Part shown: positions 7,095 through 21,637 of the stretch, in pieces
How the letters are laid out: every line of letters begins with the position of its first letter
Numbering within the stretch: position 1 is the stretch's first letter
From: Desulfobacteraceae bacterium
GTDB lineage: Bacteria; Desulfobacterota; Desulfobacteria; Desulfobacterales; Desulfobacteraceae
Assembly (NCBI GenBank): GCA_030632885.1
Contig: DAOVTW010000002.1
Span: forward strand, 36,056 to 68,055
Direction of reading: 5' to 3'
DNA length: 32,000 nucleotides
Position numbers and translations under genes: made by a program
The notes under the pieces: generated by a model
Told to the model about the DNA's origin: nothing
What the model saw: only the letters and a program-made list of their open reading frames with translations
Databases searched by the model: none

Positions 7095-8963
7095 ATGTTA
7101 CTTGTACTTAAAGAGAATATAACTCAAGAGCAGAAAGAGTTATTAAAAAGGACATTAACAGATCAAAATTGTATTACGCGTGAAATAAGAGACATGGGTA
7201 AAGATGTAATCGGAGTTATTGGAAAGATTACAAAAGATATTGATTATTTTAAAAAGATGGATGGAATAGCTGATGTTGTTCCAATCAGCACACCATTTAA
7301 ATTTGTAAGCCGTGAATTTAAAAAAGAAGATACAAAAGTCAAGGTTGGCGATGTTGTTGTGGGTGGCGATAGGATAGTTATTATGGCAGGACCATGTGCT
7401 GTGGAAACTCTTGAACAGTGTATGTCCATCGCAAAATCAGTGAGACAATATGGAGGAGTCCTTTTTCGAGGCGGCGCCTATAAACCACGATCATCTCCCT
7501 ACTCTTTCCAGGGACTTGAAGAAGAAGGCTTGAAAATACTTGCCAAAGTCAGAGAAGAGACAGGTCTTGGAGTCGTCACTGAAATGACATCTCCTGTCCA
7601 GGCTGATCTGATGATGCAATATGTTGATGTTGTTCAGATTGGTGCCAGGAATATGCAGAACTTTGAATTGCTCAAATGTGTCGGTAAAATGGGAAAACCT
7701 GTTCTTTTAAAAAGAGGTCTTGCATCAACAATACAGGAATGGTTAATGTCTGCTGAATATATCGTATCTGAAGGAAATGAGAATGTAATATTATGTGAGC
7801 GGGGCATTAGAACATTTGAACCCTCCACTAGAAATACTCTGGATCTTTCTGCAATCCCTGTGTTAAAAAAATTGACACATCTTCCCATTATAATTGATCC
7901 AAGTCATGCAACAGGCATGAGAGAAAAAGTCAGCCCCATGGCAAGAGCAGCAATTGCAGCAGGCGCAGATGGATTAATGATTGAAGTTCATAATGATCCT
8001 GATAATGCTTTGTCAGACGGTCCCCAAAGCCTTTATCCCGAGCAGTTTGGTAAACTAACAAGAGATCTTTATGTTATTGCTCCTGTTGTTGGTAAACAAT
8101 TGGATTTTGATTACTTAAAAAAATCAGAGACAATGAAAAAATCAAATGGGAATGGTGCTGGAACAGCTACTTTTATAGGTGCGTTAGGGACTTATAGTCA
8201 TATAGCATCCATGCAGTATTTTGGTGATGATATCAAACCGCTTCCCAAGGAGACATTTAGAGATATTTTTAAAGCAGTTGATTCAGGAGATGCTGAATAT
8301 GGAGTGATTCCTTTGGAGAACTCACTTTCAGGTTCGATTCACGAAAACTATGACCTGCTCCAGGAATATGATCTTAAGATAATAGGGGAGATAAAAATTC
8401 GTATAGAGCATTCATTAATTGCCCAAAAAGGTGCAACTAAAGAATCAATTACCAAAGTGCTTTCGCCACCACCTGCTCTTTCCCAGTGCAAACATTATCT
8501 TGATCAACACCCTGATTATGAACAGATAATTGCAAAAGCTACAGCAAGTGCAGTAAAAACTGTCAGTGAATCTGATGATTTAACATTGGCTGCCATTGGA
8601 AGCAGTATGGCAGCAGATATTTTTAAAATGACAATCATTGATAAAGGGATAGAAGATAATCCAAGAAATTATACCAGGTTTGCAATTATATCCAAAAATC
8701 CTGAAACGCCTGCAAAGGGTACTAAATCTTCCATAATTTTTTCAACTATTAATAAACCAGGAGCATTATTTGGTGTTATGAAAGTGTTTTCAGATCATGA
8801 GATCAATCTTGTGAAACTTGAATCAAGACCAATTGCAGGAAAACCATGGAAATATATGTTCTATGCAGATTTAGAAACAAATATAGAAGATGATAAATCA
8901 AAGCAAGTGGTTAAAGTTATAGAAGAAAAAACTGATTATTATAGAGTCCTTGGAGTATACTGA
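7095..8963 (+). CDS. Fusion protein: ferredoxin-like regulatory domain + type I-beta DAHP synthase + prephenate dehydratase + ACT domain
   Basis: 622-aa continuous ORF with a strong RBS. The N-terminus MLLVLKENITQEQ...VIGVIG...FKFVSREFKKEDT resembles the Thermotoga-type DAHPS regulatory domain. Catalytic core: IMAGPCAVE, KPRSSPYSFQG, IDPSHATG. PDT half: FIGALGTYSHIAS, IPLENSLSGSIHENYDLL. ACT region: NKPGALFGVMKVFSDHEINLVKLESRP. No chorismate mutase segment recognised. Confidence 0.85.
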   Translation: MLLVLKENITQEQKELLKRTLTDQNCITREIRDMGKDVIGVIGKITKDIDYFKKMDGIADVVPISTPFKFVSREFKKEDTKVKVGDVVVGGDRIVIMAGPCAVETLEQCMSIAKSVRQYGGVLFRGGAYKPRSSPYSFQGLEEEGLKILAKVREETGLGVVTEMTSPVQADLMMQYVDVVQIGARNMQNFELLKCVGKMGKPVLLKRGLASTIQEWLMSAEYIVSEGNENVILCERGIRTFEPSTRNTLDLSAIPVLKKLTHLPIIIDPSHATGMREKVSPMARAAIAAGADGLMIEVHNDPDNALSDGPQSLYPEQFGKLTRDLYVIAPVVGKQLDFDYLKKSETMKKSNGNGAGTATFIGALGTYSHIASMQYFGDDIKPLPKETFRDIFKAVDSGDAEYGVIPLENSLSGSIHENYDLLQEYDLKIIGEIKIRIEHSLIAQKGATKESITKVLSPPPALSQCKHYLDQHPDYEQIIAKATASAVKTVSESDDLTLAAIGSSMAADIFKMTIIDKGIEDNPRNYTRFAIISKNPETPAKGTKSSIIFSTINKPGALFGVMKVFSDHEINLVKLESRPIAGKPWKYMFYADLETNIEDDKSKQVVKVIEEKTDYYRVLGVY

Positions 8964-8968
8964 AGATA

Positions 8969-9040
8969 GCAAATTTACCAATGAAGTTTGCCCAAAGATT
9001 TTATTATTTTGGACAAGCTTCATTGCAAGTAAAATTGATT
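8969..9040 (+). repeat. Copy A of a 72-nt repeat containing a long imperfect hairpin
   Basis: Ungapped hand alignment with 14947-15018 gives 58/72 identities, including the exact 16-mer ACAAGCTTCATTGCAA. The internal arms 8979-8996 / 9008-9025 pair over about 18 bp (one mismatch, one G-U). It begins 6 nt after the fusion-gene stop. Confidence 0.7.
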
Positions 9041-9098: not shown

Positions 9099-9168
9099 TA
9101 AAGTTTATAATCATGGCACGGTCTTTGCTTTATATCCTCTGTGTCCATGCGTTTTGGAAGGAATTATC

Positions 9169-9579
9169 ATGCACCAGGATCATACTGATTTTTTAAACAC
9201 CCATTCATTAAATTATATTGAAATGGCCTTAAGCACTGACAGAGTTGAAAGGATTACTCATCCGGATGGATACGGCAAAAGGACTGGACAGTGTGGGGAT
9301 ACGGCTGAATTTTTTTTGATCTGCAAAGACAATATACTGCAATCGGTCTCTTTTAATGTTTGCGGTTGCATGAATACAACCGCTTGTTGCAATACGGTTT
9401 CAATGAAGGTCACGGGAAAAACGATTGATGCCGCATGGAAAATTTCACCCGAAGAGGTGGACCGGTTTTTAGAGACACTTCCGGAAGATCATTTTCATTG
9501 TGCCGAACTTGCAGTGGGTGCATTATATCTCGCATTGACGGATATAAACGGCAATAAATTAGAACAATTAAAGGACTAA
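9169..9579 (+). CDS. NifU N-terminal/IscU-like Fe-S scaffold-family protein (copy 1)
   Basis: GQCGDTAEFFL, VCGCMNTTACC and HCAELAVGAL follow the IscU three-Cys layout. I prefer ATG 9169 (GGAAGG RBS) over the tracked TTG 9154. Confidence 0.7.
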   Translation: MHQDHTDFLNTHSLNYIEMALSTDRVERITHPDGYGKRTGQCGDTAEFFLICKDNILQSVSFNVCGCMNTTACCNTVSMKVTGKTIDAAWKISPEEVDRFLETLPEDHFHCAELAVGALYLALTDINGNKLEQLKD

Positions 9580-9590
9580 AGGAGAAACAA

Positions 9591-9845
9591 ATGCCCCTAT
9601 ATGAATTTAAATGTGAGGACTGTGGCAGGCTAACAGAAATCCTCATTTTCGGGACAAAGGATCAGCCTTCCTGCCAATCCTGCGGCAGCACAAATATGAC
9701 AAAACAGATGTCAGCCCCTTCTACTATGTCGGGTCCGACCAAAAATGCCATGCCAGGATTAAAAGATACGGCCTGCTGCGGGTCATCGCCAGGAAAAGCC
9801 GAAGGGTGTGCAGGACCCGGTAGTTGCTGCGGGAAGCAATTTTAA
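9591..9845 (+). CDS. FmdB-family zinc-ribbon protein with a Cys/Gly-rich tail
   Basis: MPLYEFKCEDCG...SCQSCGS (CxxC...CxxC) plus the tail TACCGSSPGKAEGCAGPGSCCGKQF. Confidence 0.75.
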   Translation: MPLYEFKCEDCGRLTEILIFGTKDQPSCQSCGSTNMTKQMSAPSTMSGPTKNAMPGLKDTACCGSSPGKAEGCAGPGSCCGKQF

Positions 9846-9847
9846 TC

Positions 9848-10291
9848 ATGGACCAACTGGATGAATTTGTTGATAACCTTCAAAATCAGATCTTTGAAGA
9901 AGCAAAACAGGCCCTTGGTGAAAAAGGATTTGACCGATGGCGCAATCCAAAATGGAATGGAAAAATTGAAAACCCGGACGGTTATGCCAGGGTAATAGGC
10001 GAATGCGGTGATACCATGGAGATCTTTTTAAAATTTGAAAATAACCGGGTCTCAAAAGCATCCTATTTTACCGATGGGTGTGCCTCAAGCATGGTCAGTG
10101 GTTCCTTTGCAGCTGAACTGACCTTGGGTCGGGATCCTGATGACCTATCCGATATCACCGCAGAAACTGTATTAGCTGCTATCGGACGACTGCCGAAAGA
10201 AGATCAGCATTGTGCAAGCCTTGCGGCACGGACTGTGCAAGAAGCATTAACCCATTACATGTCAGGTCTTGTAAAAAAGACAAAGGAATAA
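9848..10291 (+). CDS. NifU N-terminal/IscU-like Fe-S scaffold-family protein (copy 2)
   Basis: GECGDTMEIFL, DGCASSMVSGS, HCASLAARTV. ATG 9848 lies 2 nt after the zinc-ribbon stop; the tracked TTG 9824 would overlap that gene. Confidence 0.7.
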   Translation: MDQLDEFVDNLQNQIFEEAKQALGEKGFDRWRNPKWNGKIENPDGYARVIGECGDTMEIFLKFENNRVSKASYFTDGCASSMVSGSFAAELTLGRDPDDLSDITAETVLAAIGRLPKEDQHCASLAARTVQEALTHYMSGLVKKTKE

Positions 10292-10306: not shown

Positions 10307-10828
10307 ATGGCCATATATCAATATGGTAAAAGAATTCCGCAAATCGGAAAAAACTCATACATCAGCGATTCTGCAAGAGTCATTGGTGATGTTACCATAA
10401 GTGATAATTGTTATATTGGTCATGGCGCCATTGTCAGGGGAGATTATGGTAAGATTATCATTGGATACGGAAGCGCCATAGAAGAGAATGCCATTCTTCA
10501 TATCAGACCCGACGGCATTCTTGAACTGGAAGACAGTGTAACTGTCGGTCACGGGGCTATTATCCACGGCAAGACCATTAAATCCCATGCCGTAATCGGA
10601 ATCGGCTCTGTCATCGGCTTTGATGTGGTGATTGGTACCTGGGCCATTGTGGCTGAAGGCTGTGTCATCCCTCAAAAATCTGTTGTTCCCGATGAAAAAA
10701 TAGCTGGCGGAGTGCCGTTTGAAATTATCGGCGATGTCGAAAAACGGCATAAGGATTTTTGGACTTATGGAAAACAGCTTTATGTTGACCTTGCCCGGGA
10801 ATATCCTGGCAAATTTAAAAAACTCTAA
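10307..10828 (+). CDS. Left-handed beta-helix (hexapeptide repeat) protein, gamma-carbonic anhydrase / CaiE / PaaY family
   Basis: 173 aa with repeated hexapeptide-like units (VIGDVTISDNCYIGHGAIVRGD..., VTVGHGAIIHG..., VIGIGSVIG...). Confidence 0.75.
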   Translation: MAIYQYGKRIPQIGKNSYISDSARVIGDVTISDNCYIGHGAIVRGDYGKIIIGYGSAIEENAILHIRPDGILELEDSVTVGHGAIIHGKTIKSHAVIGIGSVIGFDVVIGTWAIVAEGCVIPQKSVVPDEKIAGGVPFEIIGDVEKRHKDFWTYGKQLYVDLAREYPGKFKKL

Positions 10829-11262: not shown

Positions 11263-12042
11263 ATGAAATTTGAACAGGTGATCGTTGAAAAAAAAGAAAC
11301 TCATGTCGCTACCCTGACCTTGAACCGTCCGGACAGCATGAACACCTTCAGCAGCAAAATGGCCTTAGAACTAAAAGAGGCATTATGCGAACTGGATGCC
11401 GACCCTTCCATCCGGGTCATTCTTTTAAAAGGGGCAGGCAAAGCTTTTTGCGCCGGGATTGATGTGAATGAACTTGAAGGGAAAACCGGCATTGAATATC
11501 AGAAATGGATCGAGCATATGGAGGCGCCGCTGGTGACCATGTCTAAAATCAAAACCCCGGTTATTGCGCAGCTCCACGGGGTTGCCGCAGCCAACGGCAT
11601 GGGACTCATTGCTGCAGCCGACCTTGTCATTGCTGAAGATAATTCTCGAATGGGACTCACCGCCATCAACGTGGGTCTTAATTGCGTCGGCCCTGTCATT
11701 CCGGTGGCTAGATGCGTGGGCCGCAAAAAAGCTCTGGAACTTCTGTTTTACGGTAAACTCATCAAGGCAGAGGAAGCCCTGGCACTTGGTCTGATCAATA
11801 AGATCGTCCCAAAAGACGAACTCGACTCAAAGGCTCTGGAATGGGCAAAAGAACTTGCACAAAAAAGTCCCTTAGCGGTTCAGATTGCTAAATCTGCCTT
11901 TTATCAATCAGAAGACATGAGTTATGCAGATCAGTTTGCTTATATGAACGAAGCCTTTGCACGCCTTTGCACCACGGATGATGCAAAAGAAGGTGTCAGG
12001 GCATTCTTTGAAAAACGCACTCCTGTCTGGCAGGAAAAATAA
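11263..12042 (+). CDS. Enoyl-CoA hydratase/isomerase (crotonase) family protein
   Basis: LNRPDSMNTF, GAGKAFCAGIDV, LHGVAAANGMGLIAAADLVIA. I prefer ATG 11263 with an AAGGA RBS over the tracked upstream start 11191. Confidence 0.85.
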   Translation: MKFEQVIVEKKETHVATLTLNRPDSMNTFSSKMALELKEALCELDADPSIRVILLKGAGKAFCAGIDVNELEGKTGIEYQKWIEHMEAPLVTMSKIKTPVIAQLHGVAAANGMGLIAAADLVIAEDNSRMGLTAINVGLNCVGPVIPVARCVGRKKALELLFYGKLIKAEEALALGLINKIVPKDELDSKALEWAKELAQKSPLAVQIAKSAFYQSEDMSYADQFAYMNEAFARLCTTDDAKEGVRAFFEKRTPVWQEK

Positions 12043-12044
12043 TA

Positions 12045-12944
12045 TTAGCGAATTGGTGACACAGGGTTTTCAATTTCCTTTAGTATTTTTTTTAATGCTA
12101 TTGGGATGCATTTGATAATCTCATCGACCTGGGTGGCAGGTGTCGGGTTTGCATAATACCCTGCAAGCCTGTTAACTTTTGCAGCAATTTTTGCAGCCTT
12201 GGGAATTTTCATTCCAGTTCCAATAAGGGCAGTTACAATACCTGTAAGTGTATCCCCTGTTCCCCCAATGGCTTCCATGGTCTCTGTTGCCGGGCTGTTA
12301 ACAGAAAACATGATACCATTTTCATCTGCAATATAATCTGTTGATCCTTTAACAAGCAGGTGTTTTGCGGCATTTTCATGGAAATAAGCACGAGTGATAA
12401 GATCAGGAATTTTATTGTTTTTGTGTAAAATAAACCCTCTGGTGTAAAATGGATGAGGAGCTTTTTCATCAGCAAGAAAGGCAAGTTCTCCAACATCGGG
12501 GGTGAAAAGATCATATGAAGTTGCAAGGCCACTCATTTTGGCTGCATACATGAATCCAGCGTCTGCAATTATAACAGGCTTTTTTTTCAAATCGTTGAGC
12601 TTAAACAGAATTTTGTTGTGCCAGTCAACATCAGGTTGGAGGTAATGAAACACAATAACATCAATATCCATATGAGGAATATTTTCAACAAGATATTGAT
12701 ATAATTTGGAGCTTCCATTTCCAAGCCCAATATCGCCGGCAATAAATCCTGTGGTGTCCTGAATGTTATCAGTTGATGGGCTAAGTGTGTTTAGTGTGGT
12801 AACCATTGCACCCAAGAGTGCTGGTGTTCCACGATTTGTCAGGAGATTTTTCCCATTAATACATAGCTGACCATCAATCATATTAATATTGCCTGTTGTC
12901 AAAGGAAAATCCTGATCAGTAACAGTGCCTACAACTGCTAACAT
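12045..12944 (-). CDS. Ribokinase-fold protein resembling the YjeF C-terminal domain (ADP/ATP-dependent NAD(P)H-hydrate dehydratase/carbohydrate kinase family); function unknown
   Basis: 299 aa with LFTPDVGELAFL, LLVKGSTDYI and GGTGDTLTGIV motifs. The N-terminal third is not recognisable. The start overlaps the upstream stop (ATGTTAG, 12938-12944). Confidence 0.55.
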   Translation of the reverse strand: MLAVVGTVTDQDFPLTTGNINMIDGQLCINGKNLLTNRGTPALLGAMVTTLNTLSPSTDNIQDTTGFIAGDIGLGNGSSKLYQYLVENIPHMDIDVIVFHYLQPDVDWHNKILFKLNDLKKKPVIIADAGFMYAAKMSGLATSYDLFTPDVGELAFLADEKAPHPFYTRGFILHKNNKIPDLITRAYFHENAAKHLLVKGSTDYIADENGIMFSVNSPATETMEAIGGTGDTLTGIVTALIGTGMKIPKAAKIAAKVNRLAGYYANPTPATQVDEIIKCIPIALKKILKEIENPVSPIR

Positions 12945-13471
12945 TGTTTTTTTATCTCCTCAAAGGCAAGCCCAAGAGCATAGCCACAAAGTGTATGCCC
13001 GATTTCAAGGGGGTCAGGTGCCTGTGCCAGAGTTTTTCCTACCATTTTACAAGCAAGATATGGTACATCTGGGCATCCGCCTCCTGAAATATTTACAATT
13101 AATTGAGTTTCTATTTCTATTGTGATTTTCATATTTGCGGCTCTGACCATTAAAAACGCCCCGAAATTTTTTACATGGAACAGATCCACTGGTATGAGTA
13201 AAGGGTCTGTGACAGGAACTATTTGCTGAGGAGAAATATCTGCTTTTTTTAAAAGCCGTAAAATATTCAGTTCTTTAATAAGTTCAAATTCAATAACAAG
13301 GTCGCATCCTGTCTGAATTCCAGGGGGAGGACCCATTACTCGTATTTTGACATTATTTGACTTTAAGGTCTTTTCAGCCTGAATGACTTCACTGGTGTTT
13401 TCGAACACCAGTATGCCAAGACCTTCCTTTGATAAAATAGTGTCTTTTTTGTTTTTAAATATACTTAGCAT
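12938..13471 (-). CDS. DUF3343 (putative Se/S carrier)-like N-terminal domain fused to an unrecognised Cys-containing C-terminal domain
   Basis: GILVFENTSEVIQAEKTLKSNNVKIRVMGPPPGIQTGCDLVIEF fits the DUF3343 pattern. The C-terminal roughly 100 aa carries GGGCPDVPYLAC, LCGY and a terminal KKQC. Confidence 0.6.
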   Translation of the reverse strand: MLSIFKNKKDTILSKEGLGILVFENTSEVIQAEKTLKSNNVKIRVMGPPPGIQTGCDLVIEFELIKELNILRLLKKADISPQQIVPVTDPLLIPVDLFHVKNFGAFLMVRAANMKITIEIETQLIVNISGGGCPDVPYLACKMVGKTLAQAPDPLEIGHTLCGYALGLAFEEIKKQC

Positions 13472-13494
13472 GTTAAAAAAAATTATATTTACTA

Positions 13495-13713
13495 TTAATC
13501 CTTAATAAGAGTAATTTTATATTCATCCCCTTGTTGTTCAATGTCCTTAATTGTATATTTTTTGTTTTCAGCTGCTCTTGATACATTTTCCTTTGATGCA
13601 TCAGTGTCAGTAAAAACTATTATTTCATTTTCATTGCCTGATTTCACAGCATCCATAAACATTAAAACTGGCTGAGGACAGGAAAGCCCTCTTGTATCAA
13701 TTGTTGTACTCAC
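13495..13713 (-). CDS. TusA/SirA-family sulfur carrier protein
   Basis: 72 aa with the TIDTRGLSCPQPVLM CPxP active-site motif and typical length. Confidence 0.85.
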   Translation of the reverse strand: MSTTIDTRGLSCPQPVLMFMDAVKSGNENEIIVFTDTDASKENVSRAAENKKYTIKDIEQQGDEYKITLIKD

Positions 13714-13724
13714 AATTAAACTCC

Positions 13725-14810
13725 TTATATTTTTTTTCTCATTGTAAACCCAATGAATAAACAGATTACAAGCCCGACTACCACAGCCGTTACCCCATGC
13801 GGACCAACACCTTTTGGCGAACTTGCTAACCCGAAATTGTGTGCAATTGCAGCTCCCATGATCATTCCCAGAACAAAAATTGCAGCATCCCCATCACCTT
13901 CACCGGAAAGGAAAAGTTGACGCCCAGGACAACCTCCGGCAAGCGCAAATGCAAGACCTGCAAGCACCATCCCTGCAAAATTCCAGATATGCATTGCATG
14001 AGCAACCGGCTGGCCGGTGAATCCCGGGTTAAATTGACCAAAAACAAAGTTTGTAATAAATGCAAAGACCACTAATGCTATCACTCCAGAAAAAAGATGC
14101 ATTTGTCGGAATAAAATCAGATCTCTGAAAGCACCCATGGTACAGAATCTGCTTCTCTGGGCAATAAAACCGATAAACAGACCAGCTCCAAGGGATAGCA
14201 ACAATGGTGCATGCATGGCTCCAGGACCTTTAAGGCTGTAAAATAACACTCCTGCTTTGTTCTCGCCAGCAAGCTGAGGATAAATAAGCATCAAGCATAG
14301 AAGACCAAGCATTAGAAGAGGTAAAAGCAGACCTGCACTTTTATGTGTCGGCTTACTTTGTCCTAAGTTGTATCCATTTTTTAAAAATTGAACACCTATC
14401 CAGATACCACCTGCAAGTCCAATTAGACCTATGATTGCATTTCCGTCTCCACCGGCAAGGCGTAGAAGCGCCCGCCAGGGGCAGCCTAAAAATACAAGTG
14501 CCCCAATCATTGCAAACATGCCAAGAGTAAACCTGACAATGGGAGCTGAACCTGAACGAGGTTTAAATTCTTTAAAACTGAAAGCTGCGACCAAGGCACC
14601 TAAAACAAACCCAATAATTTCCGGGCGGATATATTGTACAACACCTGCTCTGTGAAGTCCTATTGCTCCTGCAATGTCTCTTTCAAAACACGCAACACAA
14701 ATTCCCATATTCCCGGGGTTTCCAAATTTTTGCAGCAACCCGGCTAAAACACCAATAATTGCACCAACACAGATAACCCCCCATCTGGTGGCAAAAAAGT
14801 TTTTTATCAT
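13725..14810 (-). CDS. YeeE/YedE-family membrane protein (sulfur/selenium compound transport family)
   Basis: 361 aa, polytopic. Cys motifs GICVACFERD, LGCPWR, RFCTMGAF, GGCPGRQ. AAGGAA RBS. Confidence 0.8.
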   Translation of the reverse strand: MIKNFFATRWGVICVGAIIGVLAGLLQKFGNPGNMGICVACFERDIAGAIGLHRAGVVQYIRPEIIGFVLGALVAAFSFKEFKPRSGSAPIVRFTLGMFAMIGALVFLGCPWRALLRLAGGDGNAIIGLIGLAGGIWIGVQFLKNGYNLGQSKPTHKSAGLLLPLLMLGLLCLMLIYPQLAGENKAGVLFYSLKGPGAMHAPLLLSLGAGLFIGFIAQRSRFCTMGAFRDLILFRQMHLFSGVIALVVFAFITNFVFGQFNPGFTGQPVAHAMHIWNFAGMVLAGLAFALAGGCPGRQLFLSGEGDGDAAIFVLGMIMGAAIAHNFGLASSPKGVGPHGVTAVVVGLVICLFIGFTMRKKI

Positions 14811-14946
14811 TTTGTATTCCTTTTAAATTTATTTAATTACTATTGTTCTGTTTGTCATAAATTTTTTAGGAAATCCAATTGATAATCATGATAGAAAAAG
14901 AGTAATCTATAGATGATATCAATATGGTAAAAAATATATGTTTTGT

Positions 14947-15018
14947 GCAAATTTATCAATTAAGCTCGCTCCAAGGTTTTGCCATTTTGAACAAGCTTCA
15001 TTGCAATTAAAATTTAAT
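14947..15018 (+). repeat. Copy B of the 72-nt repeat (same orientation as copy A)
   Basis: 58/72 identity to 8969-9040. The internal hairpin is partly retained (one C-G replaces a G-U of copy A). The 3' end overlaps a separate perfect 10-bp palindrome, TTGCAATTAA-n7-TTAATTGCAA (15001-15027). Confidence 0.7.
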
Positions 15019-15081
15019 TAATTGCAATCTTTTGAAACCATCTCCTTGTTTTTGGCAGAGTTGCATCCTATAATCATAAAT

Positions 15082-15267
15082 ATGAATAGTGAAATAAAAA
15101 CAGAAGATTCATTAAATGTTGACAAGAGCTTAATTGCAATGTTTCTTAAATTGTCACCTGATGATCGGATCCTTTCTAATGATAACATGATACGTACAAT
15201 TATTGAGCTTAGGAACGCATATGAGCAACAAAAAGCAAACAGCATTAGATCTAAGTGCAATTCTTGA
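15082..15267 (+). CDS. Small hypothetical protein (61 aa), possible antitoxin-like partner of the downstream nucleotidyltransferase
   Basis: MNSEIKTEDSLNVDKSLIAMFLKLSPDDRILSNDNMIRTIIELRNAYEQQK... A TTGTTT-17-TATAAT promoter-like element (15046-15074) would put the transcription start at about the ATG. Overlaps the next ORF by 47 nt. Confidence 0.35.
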   Translation: MNSEIKTEDSLNVDKSLIAMFLKLSPDDRILSNDNMIRTIIELRNAYEQQKANSIRSKCNS

Positions 15268-15721
15268 AGGTTTATTGGAATCGGACATAGAATTTATTTT
15301 GGTTGGCGGTCTTGCTGCTGTTGTACAAGGAGCACCTGTCACCACAATGGATGTTGACATAGTCCATAATCAATCTTCTGAAAATATATCCAAATTGATT
15401 AAATTTCTCAAATCAGTTGATGCAATATATCGTCGTCCAGATGATAAGGTGATTGAACCCAATGGAAAAGATATCTCAGGTATGGGTCATTTTCTCCTTA
15501 AAACTCGATTTGGTCCTCTTGATGTTTTATCTTTTATTGAGCAGAGAAAGGTTTATGCTGATCTCCTTAAACATACCGTGGAGATTAAGTTTAGGAACCG
15601 TATTGTTAAGGTGCTTGATCTTAAAACATTGATCGATCTCAAAAAATTGTCTAAAAATCCTAAAAACAAACAAAAGTTAATGGTATTGGAAGAAACTTTA
15701 AGGCAGATCAATGGAGAATGA
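15221..15721 (+). CDS. Minimal nucleotidyltransferase-fold (pol beta superfamily) protein
   Basis: FILVGGLAAVVQGAPVTTMDVDIV matches the GG...G-x(n)-DxD NTase signature. I prefer ATG 15221 with an AGGAA RBS over the tracked TTG 15203. Confidence 0.6.
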   Translation: MSNKKQTALDLSAILEGLLESDIEFILVGGLAAVVQGAPVTTMDVDIVHNQSSENISKLIKFLKSVDAIYRRPDDKVIEPNGKDISGMGHFLLKTRFGPLDVLSFIEQRKVYADLLKHTVEIKFRNRIVKVLDLKTLIDLKKLSKNPKNKQKLMVLEETLRQINGE

Positions 15722-15738: not shown

Positions 15739-16479
15739 CTAATTTATGATTTCGTCAATTGCAATATTGGCGATCATTAAACCAAAAGTTCCTGTTATAT
15801 AAGGGACTGTCCCAAGGGGAGGTCTTTTTCTTCCATGGTCTGGCTCTGAATTTAATTCTAACTCTAATTCAGAGACAATTTCTTGAACACTATTCTTTGG
15901 TTCTTCCATAGAGTAAACACATTTGACATTTTCAGAAATTCCACGCCTGCGAAGCCTTCGCCTTACAAATCGTGCAAGGGGGCAAACACTTGTTTTAAAA
16001 ATATCACTTATTTTTATCATGGATGCATCTGTTTTACCGGCAGCTCCCATGCTCGAAACTATTTTCAAACCATTCTCTTTTGCTTTACAGATAAGGTTCA
16101 CTTTAGAGTTTAATCCGTCTATGGCATCGATAACAACATCAATATCTTTTGATAGCAAGGTTTCTATGCTTTCAGCATTAACAAAGGAATCATGGATTTC
16201 AACAATAGCGTTAGGATTAATATCTTTTATTCTTTTTTTTGCAAGTTTTGCCTTTTTTTTTCCAATTGTGGAATGCAAAGCATAAATTTGGCGATTGATA
16301 TTAGTTATATCTATTTCATCAAAATCAATCAGGCTGAAAAATCCAACACCTGTTCGTGCCAATGCTTCTACGGCAAATGAACCAACAGCTCCAAGCCCAA
16401 AGACTGCAATCTTTGCTTGTTTGATTTTATTTAATGCTTCAGACCCGAGAAGTTGTTCTGTCCGTGTAAATTGATTCAT
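15739..16479 (-). CDS. tcdA: ThiF/MoeB-fold tRNA threonylcarbamoyladenosine dehydratase (TcdA/CsdL-like)
   Basis: FTRTEQLLGSEALNKIKQAKIAVFGLGAVGS...IDFDEIDITNINRQI; size and motifs are typical of TcdA. Confidence 0.75.
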   Translation of the reverse strand: MNQFTRTEQLLGSEALNKIKQAKIAVFGLGAVGSFAVEALARTGVGFFSLIDFDEIDITNINRQIYALHSTIGKKKAKLAKKRIKDINPNAIVEIHDSFVNAESIETLLSKDIDVVIDAIDGLNSKVNLICKAKENGLKIVSSMGAAGKTDASMIKISDIFKTSVCPLARFVRRRLRRRGISENVKCVYSMEEPKNSVQEIVSELELELNSEPDHGRKRPPLGTVPYITGTFGLMIANIAIDEIIN

Positions 16480-19289: not shown

Positions 19290-20186
19290 ATGAGAATAGT
19301 AACAAGGCCGGATTTTGATGGGATTGTATGTGCAGTTTTTATAGAACAATCGGAAAATATTACAGAGCCTGTGAAATGGATTGAGCCTGGAGATGTTCAG
19401 CAAGGTACAGCAGATATTAAGGATGGCGATATCATGGCAAATCTGCCCTATGATGAAAGATGCTCTGTATGGTTTGATCATCATATTTCAAATGTTCCTT
19501 TCTCAAAAGTTGAAGGCTCATTTAAAATAGCTCCTTCAGCCGCAGGAATTGTTTACGAATATTATAAAGAAAAAGGTCTTTTAAAAAAGAATTTTGATGA
19601 GCTTGTTGAACAGACCGATATTATTGATGCAGCGAAACTTACTAAAGATCAAGTGCTAAATCCCCAAAAATATCCATATATTCTTCTTTCCATGACTGTG
19701 AAAAACAAGGATGAGTCTGATCCGAAATATTGGAATAAGCTTATCTCTTTATTAAAGGATATGCCAATCAAAGATATTATAGAAGATAGCGAAGTAAAAA
19801 AGAGAGCAAAGATTGTTTTAGAGGAGAATATTGTTTATGAAAAATATCTTAAAGAATATACAAAAATAGAAGGGAATATATCTGTAACTGATTTTAGGTC
19901 TTTTGATCAATCTCCTTCTGGCAACAGGTTTCTTTCATATCATCTTTTCCCTGATACTATTGCAAGCATTACAATAAGAAATAAGGTCGAAAATAAAAAT
20001 CAAATTCTTTTAAGTATTGGAAAAAGTATTTTTAATAATAAAAGTAATGTAAATATTGGTAAACTTCTTTCAAATTATAGTGGTGGAGGGCATGACGGTG
20101 CTGGTGGATGTACTCTTAATGTTGAGACAGCTGAGGTAGACATTAAAAAGATTATTAGTATAATGGTGGAAGATAGAGAAAATTAG
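19290..20186 (+). CDS. DHH/DHHA1-family phosphoesterase (NrnB/COG2404-like)
   Basis: RPDFDGIVCAV, WFDHH, GGGHDGAGG. Confidence 0.65.
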   Translation: MRIVTRPDFDGIVCAVFIEQSENITEPVKWIEPGDVQQGTADIKDGDIMANLPYDERCSVWFDHHISNVPFSKVEGSFKIAPSAAGIVYEYYKEKGLLKKNFDELVEQTDIIDAAKLTKDQVLNPQKYPYILLSMTVKNKDESDPKYWNKLISLLKDMPIKDIIEDSEVKKRAKIVLEENIVYEKYLKEYTKIEGNISVTDFRSFDQSPSGNRFLSYHLFPDTIASITIRNKVENKNQILLSIGKSIFNNKSNVNIGKLLSNYSGGGHDGAGGCTLNVETAEVDIKKIISIMVEDREN

Positions 20187-20269: not shown

Positions 20270-20758
20270 TTGAATATAGTTTCTATTGTTGGAAAATCCG
20301 GCGCAGGTAAAACAACACTTATAGAGAAGTTAATTAAGGAATTAAAGAGAAAAGGCTATATCGTTGGCACTGTAAAGCATACACATAAAGGTTTTCATAT
20401 GGATAAGAAGGGAAAGGACTCCTGGCGACATCGAAATGCAGGGTCAGATGCAACCCTTTTAATAGCTCCCGGGATAATTGCACTTGTAAAAGATGAAGAA
20501 CTTGATGTGATAGAAGAGATACAAGCATATCTCTCTGATATGGATATTGTATTGGTAGAAGGATTTAAGAGAGAAAATCTTCCAAAAATTGAGATTTTCA
20601 GATCAGATGGAGATCATAAAGGGCCATTATGTATGGATGATAATAACCTGGATGCTTTTGTTACTGATTCAGATTATGCTCCTGATGTTCCAAGGTTTGG
20701 TCTTAAGGATATTGACGCTATAACTCAGTTTATCGAAAAGCAATATTTGAAAGTATAA
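20270..20758 (+). CDS. mobB: Molybdopterin-guanine dinucleotide biosynthesis adaptor protein MobB
   Basis: IVGKSGAGKTTLIEKLIKELKRKGYIVGTVKHTH...GKDSWRH; TTG start. Confidence 0.85.
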   Translation: MNIVSIVGKSGAGKTTLIEKLIKELKRKGYIVGTVKHTHKGFHMDKKGKDSWRHRNAGSDATLLIAPGIIALVKDEELDVIEEIQAYLSDMDIVLVEGFKRENLPKIEIFRSDGDHKGPLCMDDNNLDAFVTDSDYAPDVPRFGLKDIDAITQFIEKQYLKV

Positions 20759-21637
20759 ATGAATAAAAGTAAATTAAAATATAATAATATAATGATCATG
20801 GGGATTTCTGTTTTTTTGTTTCTTTTGTTTTTTAACCCAACCATAGGCTTTGCAGACAATATACCTTGTCCGGAAAAAGGGTATGTTACAAAGCTTGAGA
20901 ATGGAGCTATTAGCTGGGGTACAGGATGCATTACTGCAAAAGGCAAAGCATCTCCCTCAAAAGAAGATAAAGGCAAGTCATCAAGCTCAATCCCTGGTGC
21001 TGCAAAAACAGATGCAACTAAGAATCTTATCTCTATACTTAAAAATATAAAAATTGCAACAAATAGTGTAAAAGAGTTTGTGGCATCAAATGATGATATT
21101 ATGGCACAAATTGAAAATACCATTTCCGATGTTTCTGTAATAAAACAGCATTATACATCTGATGGTGCATTGGAAATAGAGGTTGAAACTTCAATGTATG
21201 GCAGCTTTCTTCAGTTTATTCTTCCCCATGAGATAATCCAGATTCCTGAAATAAAATCAATTGAGACCAATAGCGATGTTCAAAAACAAAGAGGAAGATA
21301 TACCGGGTTTGTTTTAGATGCCAGGGGGCTTAAGTTTGAGCCTTCATTGTATCCTGTTATTAAAAATGAGTATGGGGAAGAAATATACAGCGCAGTTTTT
21401 ATTAACAGAGAATATGCTGCCCAATATGGTGTTTGTAAATATTTTTGTAGTATGGAAAAAGCTGTTGTAAATAAAAGAGTTGGTGAAAATCCTCTTGTTT
21501 TAAAAGCTTTAAGGCTAGGAGAGGATAAAAATTCAATAATTTTGAATAAATCTGATGCTGAAAAAATAGAGAAACTAATTGAGCGGCATTCTTTTTTTAA
21601 AGAATGCCGGGTAGTTATTGTTCTGGATCAAGAATAG
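20759..21637 (+). CDS. Secreted hypothetical protein (signal peptide)
   Basis: The start abuts the mobB stop (TAAATG). The N-terminus IMIMGISVFLFLLFFNPTIGFA is signal-peptide-like. No domain recognised. Confidence 0.5.
   Translation: MNKSKLKYNNIMIMGISVFLFLLFFNPTIGFADNIPCPEKGYVTKLENGAISWGTGCITAKGKASPSKEDKGKSSSSIPGAAKTDATKNLISILKNIKIATNSVKEFVASNDDIMAQIENTISDVSVIKQHYTSDGALEIEVETSMYGSFLQFILPHEIIQIPEIKSIETNSDVQKQRGRYTGFVLDARGLKFEPSLYPVIKNEYGEEIYSAVFINREYAAQYGVCKYFCSMEKAVVNKRVGENPLVLKALRLGEDKNSIILNKSDAEKIEKLIERHSFFKECRVVIVLDQE

Follow-up and report, generated by a model that had tools for sequence, protein, structure and literature searches.

A conserved YedE–TusA–DUF3343 cassette ending in a predicted ribokinase-fold enzyme: a probable selenium acquisition and delivery operon

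It is still unsolved how prokaryotes take up traces of selenium specifically and, with sulfur in enormous excess, bring it safely to selenophosphate synthetase (SelD); by 2024 a transporter dedicated to selenium had not been demonstrated for any organism (PMC11097638). Three protein types, YedE, YedF and DUF3343, have been tied to selenium by comparative genomics, in a description that mentions no kinase-like gene (Lin et al. 2015, PMC5322559), and they have so far stood as comparative-genomics candidates only. Here we analyse a 32,000-nucleotide stretch of a Desulfobacteraceae genome (contig DAOVTW010000002.1, positions 36,056 to 68,055; hereafter the window), in which four minus-strand genes at 12045–14810, called G1 to G4, encode a YedE-family membrane protein, a TusA-like carrier, a protein with DUF3343 and DUF8182 domains, and a predicted ribokinase-fold enzyme. 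The locus resembles the selenium genes of Lin et al. in that G1 matches the YedE model TIGR04112 over its full length, TusA-domain and DUF3343 proteins follow it, and relatives are linked to selD, to long YedF and to a LysR-type regulator. It differs in that DUF3343 is here the N-terminal half of a multi-cysteine protein which is paired, or even fused, with the ribokinase-fold enzyme; neither that kinase-like enzyme nor the DUF8182 domain is part of the earlier description.

The four genes are tightly packed. G1 (361 residues; 13725–14810) is followed after 11 nucleotides, which include the sequence GGAG, by the GTG start of G2 (72 residues; 13495–13713), and 23 nucleotides separate the G2 stop from the ATG of G3 (177 residues; 12938–13471). 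The ATG of G4 (299 residues; 12045–12944) overlaps the TAG of G3 as ATGTTAG (12938–12944), implying that translation of G3 and G4 is probably coupled. An earlier note on this DNA had described four co-directional genes at these positions with exactly these gaps and this overlap, and direct reading of the sequence agrees with it throughout: every open reading frame (ORF) lies where it was placed and all of the motifs quoted there are found in the translated genes. Its family assignments were likewise borne out by profile searches, as Sulf_transp/TIGR04112, TusA, Se_S_carrier/DUF3343 and (over part of its length) Carb_kinase for G1 to G4, respectively, and profile searches of all 32,000 nucleotides confirmed that the window contains no SelD, rhodanese or cysteine desulfurase.

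Relatives of the locus were collected from GTDB r232 using one genome per species. At least 534 stretches contain a relative, found with search patterns that fit the Desulfobacterales-like subfamily only, and co-conservation was counted with tblastn, using the window proteins, in the best 80 of these loci; the sample consists mostly of Desulfobacterota metagenome-assembled genomes (MAGs). G3 is present in 78 of them, G2 in 75 and G1 in 74, the misses falling at contig ends, and practically all loci of sufficient length show the four genes on one strand in the order G1-G2-G3-G4. The stop of G3 overlaps the start of G4 by 4–16 nucleotides in 70 of 71 loci. The same order is retained in members as distant as 33–35% identity and in an Anaerolineae locus (L090), and again in a member at 35% identity (L087), whose transporter scores 358 bits on TIGR04112.

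G3 and G4 are also found as gene fusions. Several representatives of the G4 family are 500–590 residues long with the G4 domain at the C-terminus, and their N-terminal halves are G3, recognisable from the successive motifs GCDM, IVN(I/V)SGGGCPDVPYLA and G(H/R)TLC(S/G)YAL. A search with one such fusion protein recovered the PF11823+PF26554+PF01256 architecture in dozens of clusters, down to 38% identity. The carriers include gut Desulfovibrionaceae (Ca. Mailhella) and Ca. Adiutrix, among others, and in the fusion loci genes for YedE (Sulf_transp) and TusA again precede the fusion gene. As Rosetta-stone evidence, these natural fusions indicate that the two proteins work together as a single physical unit. 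Taken together, the four genes form one conserved cassette in an arrangement far beyond chance, and the co-conservation on which the earlier note had staked its proposal is found in the locus counts, the overlaps and the fusions alike.

That note had left the element handled by the cassette as either sulfur or selenium. The transporter and the neighbours of the cassette now lean clearly towards selenium, while the YedE/TusA character of the first two proteins stands. G1 scores 494.7 bits on TIGR04112, for which the cutoff is 200, with residues 12–355 aligning to model positions 2–337 of 337, and also matches Pfam Sulf_transp; it falls far below the cutoffs of the TsuA/YeeE thiosulfate-transporter models (NF052577, 40.2 versus 400 bits; NF041049, 25.1 versus 645). 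Five of its cysteines (Cys38, Cys41, Cys110, Cys223 and Cys294) are invariant in 78–81 loci, in agreement with the pathway cysteines expected in the two Sulf_transp repeats of this family. Judged by these scores, G1 is a predicted selenium-type YedE (TIGR04112) and not a thiosulfate transporter of the YeeE/TsuA type. An identity of G1 and G2 with the thiosulfate pair YeeE/YeeD was rejected on model scores, at 40 versus 400 bits for G1 and 17 versus 147.5 for G2 against TsuB.

To identify recurring neighbours, all ORFs in the 80 loci were clustered and then subjected to profile searches. Of the 80 loci, 20 have SelD (TIGR00476, 366 bits) no further than 7 kb from the cassette, and with L090 this makes 21 of 91 loci. 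Each of these 21 genes has a TGA in frame where the active-site residue is encoded (G-S-G-U-A-S-K), and so encodes a selenoprotein of the selenocysteine (Sec) type. In three loci (L023, L040 and L090) the selD ATG overlaps the G4 stop as ATGA, and in L051 the gap is 18 nucleotides. Long YedF (TIGR03527, 218 bits) is encoded by a gene of its own in 15 of the 80 loci, and LysR_Sec_metab, a LysR-type regulator of selenium metabolism (NF040786, 294 bits versus a cutoff of 250), in eight. The Anaerolineae locus unites several of these features, with LysR_Sec_metab ahead of a YedE-TusA-G3-G4-SelD series and a NifS-like desulfurase 2.4 kb beyond. DsrE, rhodanese and sulfite-reductase genes show no recurrence in the flanks of the 80 loci. 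Chance could hardly place a single-copy gene such as selD so close (7 kb or less) to the cassette in roughly one species in four, and it is this recurrent proximity that shifts the balance between sulfur and selenium towards selenium. The earlier note had also asked whether the ribokinase-fold gene tracks selD; selD is absent from the window, and in relatives it stands directly downstream of G4 and is sometimes translationally coupled to it.

Other genes were observed near the cassette in subsets of the loci. An ORF of ~78 residues with a CxCC motif (GECICC) directly follows the G4 stop, usually overlapping it, in 32 of the 80 loci (within L003–L076), and is absent from the window; its similarity to the hybrid cluster protein-associated redox disulfide domain is weak (TIGR03980, 28.8 bits versus a cutoff of 44.95), and it could represent an optional fifth component of the cassette with the role of a redox partner. 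In seven loci (L011, L014, L023, L057, L065, L066 and L078) an anaerobic reductase of the double-cubane-cluster type (NF040772, 469 bits) is found nearby, which echoes the '2-hydroxyglutaryl-CoA dehydratase/activase' genes that Lin et al. (2015, PMC5322559) recorded beside YedE and YedF; this enzyme may be a low-potential reductase for selenium species. Downstream of G4 in eight loci (L006, L013, L014, L018, L019, L022, L025 and L028) is an ORF of ~156 residues, provisionally labelled HAD-like; in four loci it lies between long yedF and selD, and the layout G4-yedF-(156 residues)-selD is seen in several Desulfobacterota. In the two most divergent loci, G3-G4 is followed by a 381-residue protein (L088, 7897–9042; L089, 1739–2884) with a single N-terminal transmembrane segment and no family match, whose GDCDEK motif recalls transglutaminase-like cysteine proteases. 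Finally, in L085 the gene immediately downstream of a fused G3-G4 gene is read from the other strand and encodes GRDA, of the glycine reductase complex selenoprotein A family (8657–8989).

The two proteins between transporter and enzyme both have the features of cysteine-based carriers. G2 matches TusA (PF01206) at 62.6 bits, against a gathering score of 28.6, and its GLSCPQP motif contains the CPxP cysteine, Cys12 (codon at 13678–13680), which is invariant in 82 loci. It is not a long YedF: the match to TIGR03527 reaches 47.9 bits against a cutoff of 110 and covers model positions 1–66 of 194 only, such that G2 corresponds to the TusA half of that model alone. G3 had been described as a DUF3343-like carrier, and this is correct as far as it goes. 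The DUF3343/Se_S_carrier domain is real (PF11823, 73.5 bits versus a gathering score of 25; residues 20–85, nucleotides 13217–13414 on the minus strand), with Cys56 in a GCDL motif and invariant in 88 loci. G3 is, however, not a plain DUF3343 protein, for a second domain with further invariant cysteines, DUF8182 (PF26554), occupies residues ~90–177 (12941–13204, minus strand); this assignment is a precomputed annotation, rather than a recomputed score, carried by a database protein identical to G3 and by all 120 listed homologues. An alignment of 44 homologues identifies Cys56, Cys133 (in GGGCPDVP), His159 and Cys162 (both in GHTLCGYAL) and Cys177 as the invariant residues. Cys177 is conserved in most of the unfused members and lost in the G3-G4 fusions, in which Cys56, Cys133 and Cys162 are retained. 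An AlphaFold2 model of G3 has a mean predicted local distance difference test score (pLDDT) of 88. Against solved structures phmmer returned only expectation values (E) above 1, and the best Foldseek match (E=3e-3, template modelling (TM) score below 0.3) showed generic ACT/ferredoxin-like similarity only. Paired with G4 and in places fused to it, this multi-cysteine DUF3343-DUF8182 protein makes up one unit with the enzyme.

The enzyme at the end of the cassette, G4, is only partly covered by known families. It matches Pfam Carb_kinase (PF01256) at 39.1 bits, above the gathering score of 27, with residues 116–268 of 299 aligning to profile positions 87–226 of 242. It falls below every NCBIfam cutoff, scoring 38.2 versus 129.85 on TIGR00196 (yjeF_cterm) and 17.4 versus 703 on the bifunctional Nnr model NF007856. 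A profile built from the G4 family and compared with Protein Data Bank (PDB) sequences detects ThiM (E=0.0018) and the Nnr protein TM0922 (E=0.06), in both cases through the GG(T/S)GD segment only. The earlier note had called this protein ribokinase-like, and structure prediction upholds that fold: the AlphaFold2 model (pLDDT 88, predicted TM score 0.90) is ribokinase-like, and Foldseek matches it with probability 1.0 and E ~2e-7 to Nnr, ThiD, PdxK and ribokinases, at TM scores of ~0.5–0.57 and 12–18% identity. No subfamily is singled out by this search, since Nnr, THI20/ThiD, PdxK and ribokinases are about equally distant. On its model, then, G4 is a predicted member of the ribokinase-like superfamily, with an alpha/beta/alpha fold and a C-terminal GxGD anion hole. 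Among 1.84 billion representative proteins, 562 match the family profile at E<=1e-3 and 92 at E<=1e-30, so few that the family must be compact and sharply bounded. All 120 listed relatives bear generic database names ('NAD(P)H-hydrate dehydratase', 'sugar kinase') or none, and a protein identical to G4 is on record from a Desulfobacterales MAG.

The residues of G4 that are invariant down to 32% identity are G39, H100, Y101, D128-A129-G130, P149-D150, K199-G200 and D203, together with E224, G227-G228-T229-G230-D231 (the GGTGD anion-hole motif, encoded at nucleotides 12252–12266 on the minus strand), G235 and R259. They comprise a nucleotide/anion-hole site and a polar pocket, and both motifs and fold suggest that a nucleotide is bound there. 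There is no conserved cysteine in G4, whereas G1, G2 and G3 carry five, one and three or four invariant cysteines, respectively. A further invariant element is the insertion ADExAPHPFYTRGF at residues ~159–171, in a region which is modelled with low confidence (block means over residues 161–180 of 63 and 70); this loop is a candidate partner- or substrate-binding element.

These observations are consistent with an operon for selenium acquisition and delivery that ends in a carrier-enzyme pair, G3-G4, which supplies SelD, and we consider this reading probable; the specific chemistry of G4, which we infer from its motifs and predicted fold, is proposed with much less confidence. In such an operon the conserved cysteines of the YedE protein G1 would form the path by which a selenium species crosses the membrane, much as YeeE passes thiosulfate. 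G2 would take the chalcogen on Cys12 as a Cys-S-Se adduct and hand it to the cysteines of G3 (Cys56 in DUF3343; Cys133 and Cys162 in DUF8182), with G3 docked on G4. G4 might then spend ATP or ADP on phosphoryl transfer to the G3-bound selenium species, using a nucleotide site formed by K199-G200 and GGTGD231 and a polar cluster of H100, Y101, D128, D150, D203, E224 and R259. Such a step would make the hand-over irreversible or selective, and reduced selenium would be released to SelD.

Several points weigh against this proposal. SelD itself consumes ATP, which leaves a second nucleotide-dependent step without an obvious chemical need, and selD is missing from the window and stands beside the cassette in only about a quarter of loci. 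A yedE deletion mutant of M. maripaludis showed no clear phenotype related to selenium (PMC11097638), and DUF3343 and TusA proteins are not specific to selenium (PMC5322559). Variants in which a relay cysteine is replaced by selenocysteine (an in-frame TGA) were sought in 91 loci and none was found. In the two most divergent loci (L088 and L089, 33% identity) G3 and G4 remain paired, and YedE and TusA are not adjacent to them.

A bolder version of the proposal would make G3-G4 an ATP-driven selenium-activating or proofreading machine, which might for example phosphorylate a Cys-S-Se(-) or selenium-oxyanion adduct on DUF8182, tell selenium from the far more abundant sulfur, and then hand selenium to SelD, or else make selenophosphate or a C-Se bond without SelD. 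We regard this as unlikely. If true, it would add a new enzyme class to the ribokinase superfamily and supply the missing specificity step of prokaryotic selenium acquisition.

The phosphoryl acceptor could also be something other than a carrier-bound chalcogen. Characterised enzymes of the ribokinase superfamily all act on hydroxyl groups, the structural neighbours of G4 (Nnr, ThiD, ThiM and PdxK) are no different in this respect, and the catalytic-type Asp of GGTGD is invariant; G4 might thus be a small-molecule kinase or ATP-dependent dehydratase working on a hydroxyl metabolite, with phosphate serving as the leaving group for carrier-bound selenium and an organoselenium compound or cofactor, rather than the supply of SelD, as the product. 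The PSTK/SepSecS route, in which phosphorylation is followed by substitution with selenium, is a precedent for such chemistry. We nevertheless find this account rather improbable: biosynthetic genes for a metabolite of this kind do not recur in the flanks, and the fusion of G4 to a cysteine carrier, together with its coupling to selD, points to a protein-bound substrate upstream of SelD.

The cassette could instead be a sulfur relay. In this case it would import thiosulfate, polysulfide or zero-valent sulfur for assimilatory or dissimilatory metabolism, as do YeeE/YeeD and the YTD cluster. Sulfur handling is well established for TusA and for proteins of the YeeE/YedE family, the same phylum has YTD clusters, and no subfamily of DUF3343 is specific to selenium; the host lineages are sulfur cyclers, and the window itself encodes multihaem cytochromes and a NapC/NirT protein. 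The scores of G1 are difficult to reconcile with this picture (495 bits on the SelD-correlated TIGR04112, but 25–40 on the TsuA models, whose cutoffs are 400–645), as is the recurrence near the cassette of Sec-type selD, long YedF and LysR_Sec_metab, with selD coupled to G4 in three loci; the flanks, moreover, hold no recurring DsrE, rhodanese or sulfite-reductase genes. We therefore judge a sulfur relay to be quite improbable.

Since G4 is obligately paired, and in places fused, with G3, and since its invariant low-confidence loop ADExAPHPFYTRGF resembles a partner-binding element, it might be a non-catalytic nucleotide-binding scaffold, or a nucleotide-gated switch, that stabilises or regulates G3. 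The residues kept invariant down to 32% identity number around 20, including the anion-hole Asp, and most are glycine or polar with a catalytic character; a scaffold would need fewer, which makes this very doubtful. That G4 is an ordinary NAD(P)HX dehydratase for metabolite repair, a mere chance neighbour of the carrier genes as its database names and its Carb_kinase match above the gathering score might suggest, is rejected as next to impossible, for its scores are far under the NnrD equivalog cutoffs (38.2 versus 129.85), the Pfam match is partial, the profile of what is a separate family barely detects Nnr (E=0.06), and both its synteny and its fusion with G3 are conserved across phyla; the grouping with bona fide NAD(P)HX dehydratases that the earlier note had named as fatal to its idea is therefore not observed.

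If the selenium acquisition-and-delivery reading is right, the cassette offers a concrete handle on selenium acquisition. It adds two uncharacterised parts, DUF8182 and a distinct ribokinase-fold family, which are tied to YedE, TusA and SelD by synteny, coupling and fusion, and in place of a loosely defined 'carrier' hypothesis it provides a definite system that can be purified, for which the natural single-chain fusions are especially convenient. The current database names of the G4 family ('sugar kinase', 'NAD(P)H-hydrate dehydratase') would need correcting.

The window as a whole is an AT-rich chromosomal segment of ~36% GC. A 392-nucleotide intergenic region upstream of G1 (14811–15202, minus strand) is the presumed promoter/regulatory region and contains a sigma-70-like match (14959–14931, minus strand); the promoter scan gave six matches in the window versus 10.8 expected by chance, such that this match serves as a location marker only. 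A terminator-like hairpin with a T-run (12020–12036, minus strand) starts nine nucleotides past the end of G4, within the 3'-terminal part of the enoyl-CoA hydratase gene that converges on it; it is weak evidence, since the four terminator matches in the window compare with 3.3 expected, again a chance rate. Co-transcription of the four genes in the window consequently rests on their spacing and overlap. Scans for tRNAs and Rfam families returned no matches in the window, and thus neither a tRNA-Sec nor a riboswitch.

None of the other window neighbours examined (the genes for enoyl-CoA hydratase, two NifU_N proteins, a gamma-carbonic-anhydrase-like protein, a ThiF/TcdA-like protein, CrcB and TatD) is conserved beside the cassette in the 80 loci, and a functional link of the ThiF/TcdA-like, NifU_N, enoyl-CoA hydratase, CrcB and TatD genes to it was rejected for that reason. 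The ThiF-family E1-like protein (15739–16479; best match TcdA, 159 bits versus a cutoff of 304) is tempting as an adenylating activator of a sulfur carrier, and its gene stands beside the cassette in 0 of the 80 loci. The NifU_N/IscU-like scaffold genes form a tandem pair (9154–9579 and 9824–10291), followed by the gamma-carbonic-anhydrase-like hexapeptide protein (10307–10828) and a 100-residue ORF with no family match, and these too are unlinked to the cassette in other genomes. Beside the region upstream of yedE is a 172-residue ORF on the plus strand (15203–15721), its 5' end overlapped by an 81-residue ORF (15022–15267); it has no Pfam or NCBIfam match, its sequence (LVGGLAAVVQGAPVTTMDVDIV) looks like a nucleotidyltransferase-type toxin-antitoxin component, and it is not conserved beside the cassette elsewhere. 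Further away, a 622-residue protein (7095–8963) combines an FXD-containing DAHP synthase with prephenate dehydratase and an ACT domain, uniting the first and a late step of aromatic amino acid synthesis in one polypeptide, and two ORFs of ~295 residues without significant family matches (19290–20186 and 20759–21637) flank a MobB gene for molybdopterin-guanine dinucleotide synthesis (20270–20758).

The four-gene arrangement was not found described in the searchable full-text literature, most subscription journals lying outside it, and within that scope the earlier note's view of an undescribed pathway holds; the same literature contains no description of G3, G4 or DUF8182 in selenium metabolism, and NCBIfam (June 2026) has no model naming G3 or G4. 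The nearest Pfam family to G4, NnrD/YjeF_C (PF01256), shares the ribokinase-like fold and counterparts of the G4 motifs TPDxGE, KG..D and GG(T/S)GD, the first of which aligns with the NnrD motif TPHxGE. Only the C-terminal two thirds of G4 align, however, and the first ~115 residues are different, having a beta-hairpin subdomain and the loops NRGTPAL and GDxGxGxGS. G4 also carries the invariant ADExAPHPFYTRGF insertion, and its constant partner is G3, whereas in bacteria the dehydratase domain of Nnr is commonly found in fusion with a YjeF_N epimerase domain, as in the bifunctional Nnr model. ThiM, ThiD and PdxK are similar in structure (TM 0.5–0.57), and ThiM provides the best PDB sequence match (E=0.0018), over the anion-hole region; they share only 12–18% identity with G4, which scores far under the family cutoffs and has no thiamine or B6 gene context. 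SelD, encoded beside G4 in many relatives, likewise represents nucleotide-consuming activation of selenium from a protein-bound or protected donor, but its fold is AIRS/PurM-like with a Sec/Cys-Lys glycine-rich loop, while G4 has an unrelated fold and lacks a conserved cysteine.

As in YeeE/YeeD (TsuA/TsuB) of E. coli and Spirochaeta, a Sulf_transp-fold membrane protein with pathway cysteines is followed by a small TusA-like CPxP partner; unlike that pair, the cassette adds the DUF3343-DUF8182 and ribokinase-like genes and a linkage to selD. The YTD cluster of the same phylum (yedE-tusA-dsrEFH type II) shares the overall logic of transporter, then TusA, then a dedicated multi-cysteine acceptor. 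Its acceptor is DsrEFH type II, which feeds DsrC in sulfur metabolism, in contrast to the DUF3343-DUF8182 protein, predicted nucleotide-dependent enzyme and selenium-gene neighbours found here; identity with the YTD cluster was rejected, neither G3 nor G4 having a DsrE-family match in Pfam or NCBIfam. As judged from these sequence comparisons, the cassette is a predicted YeeE/YedE plus TusA chalcogen import module in which the acceptor is new and consists of a multi-cysteine carrier linked to an uncharacterised enzyme of the ribokinase superfamily.

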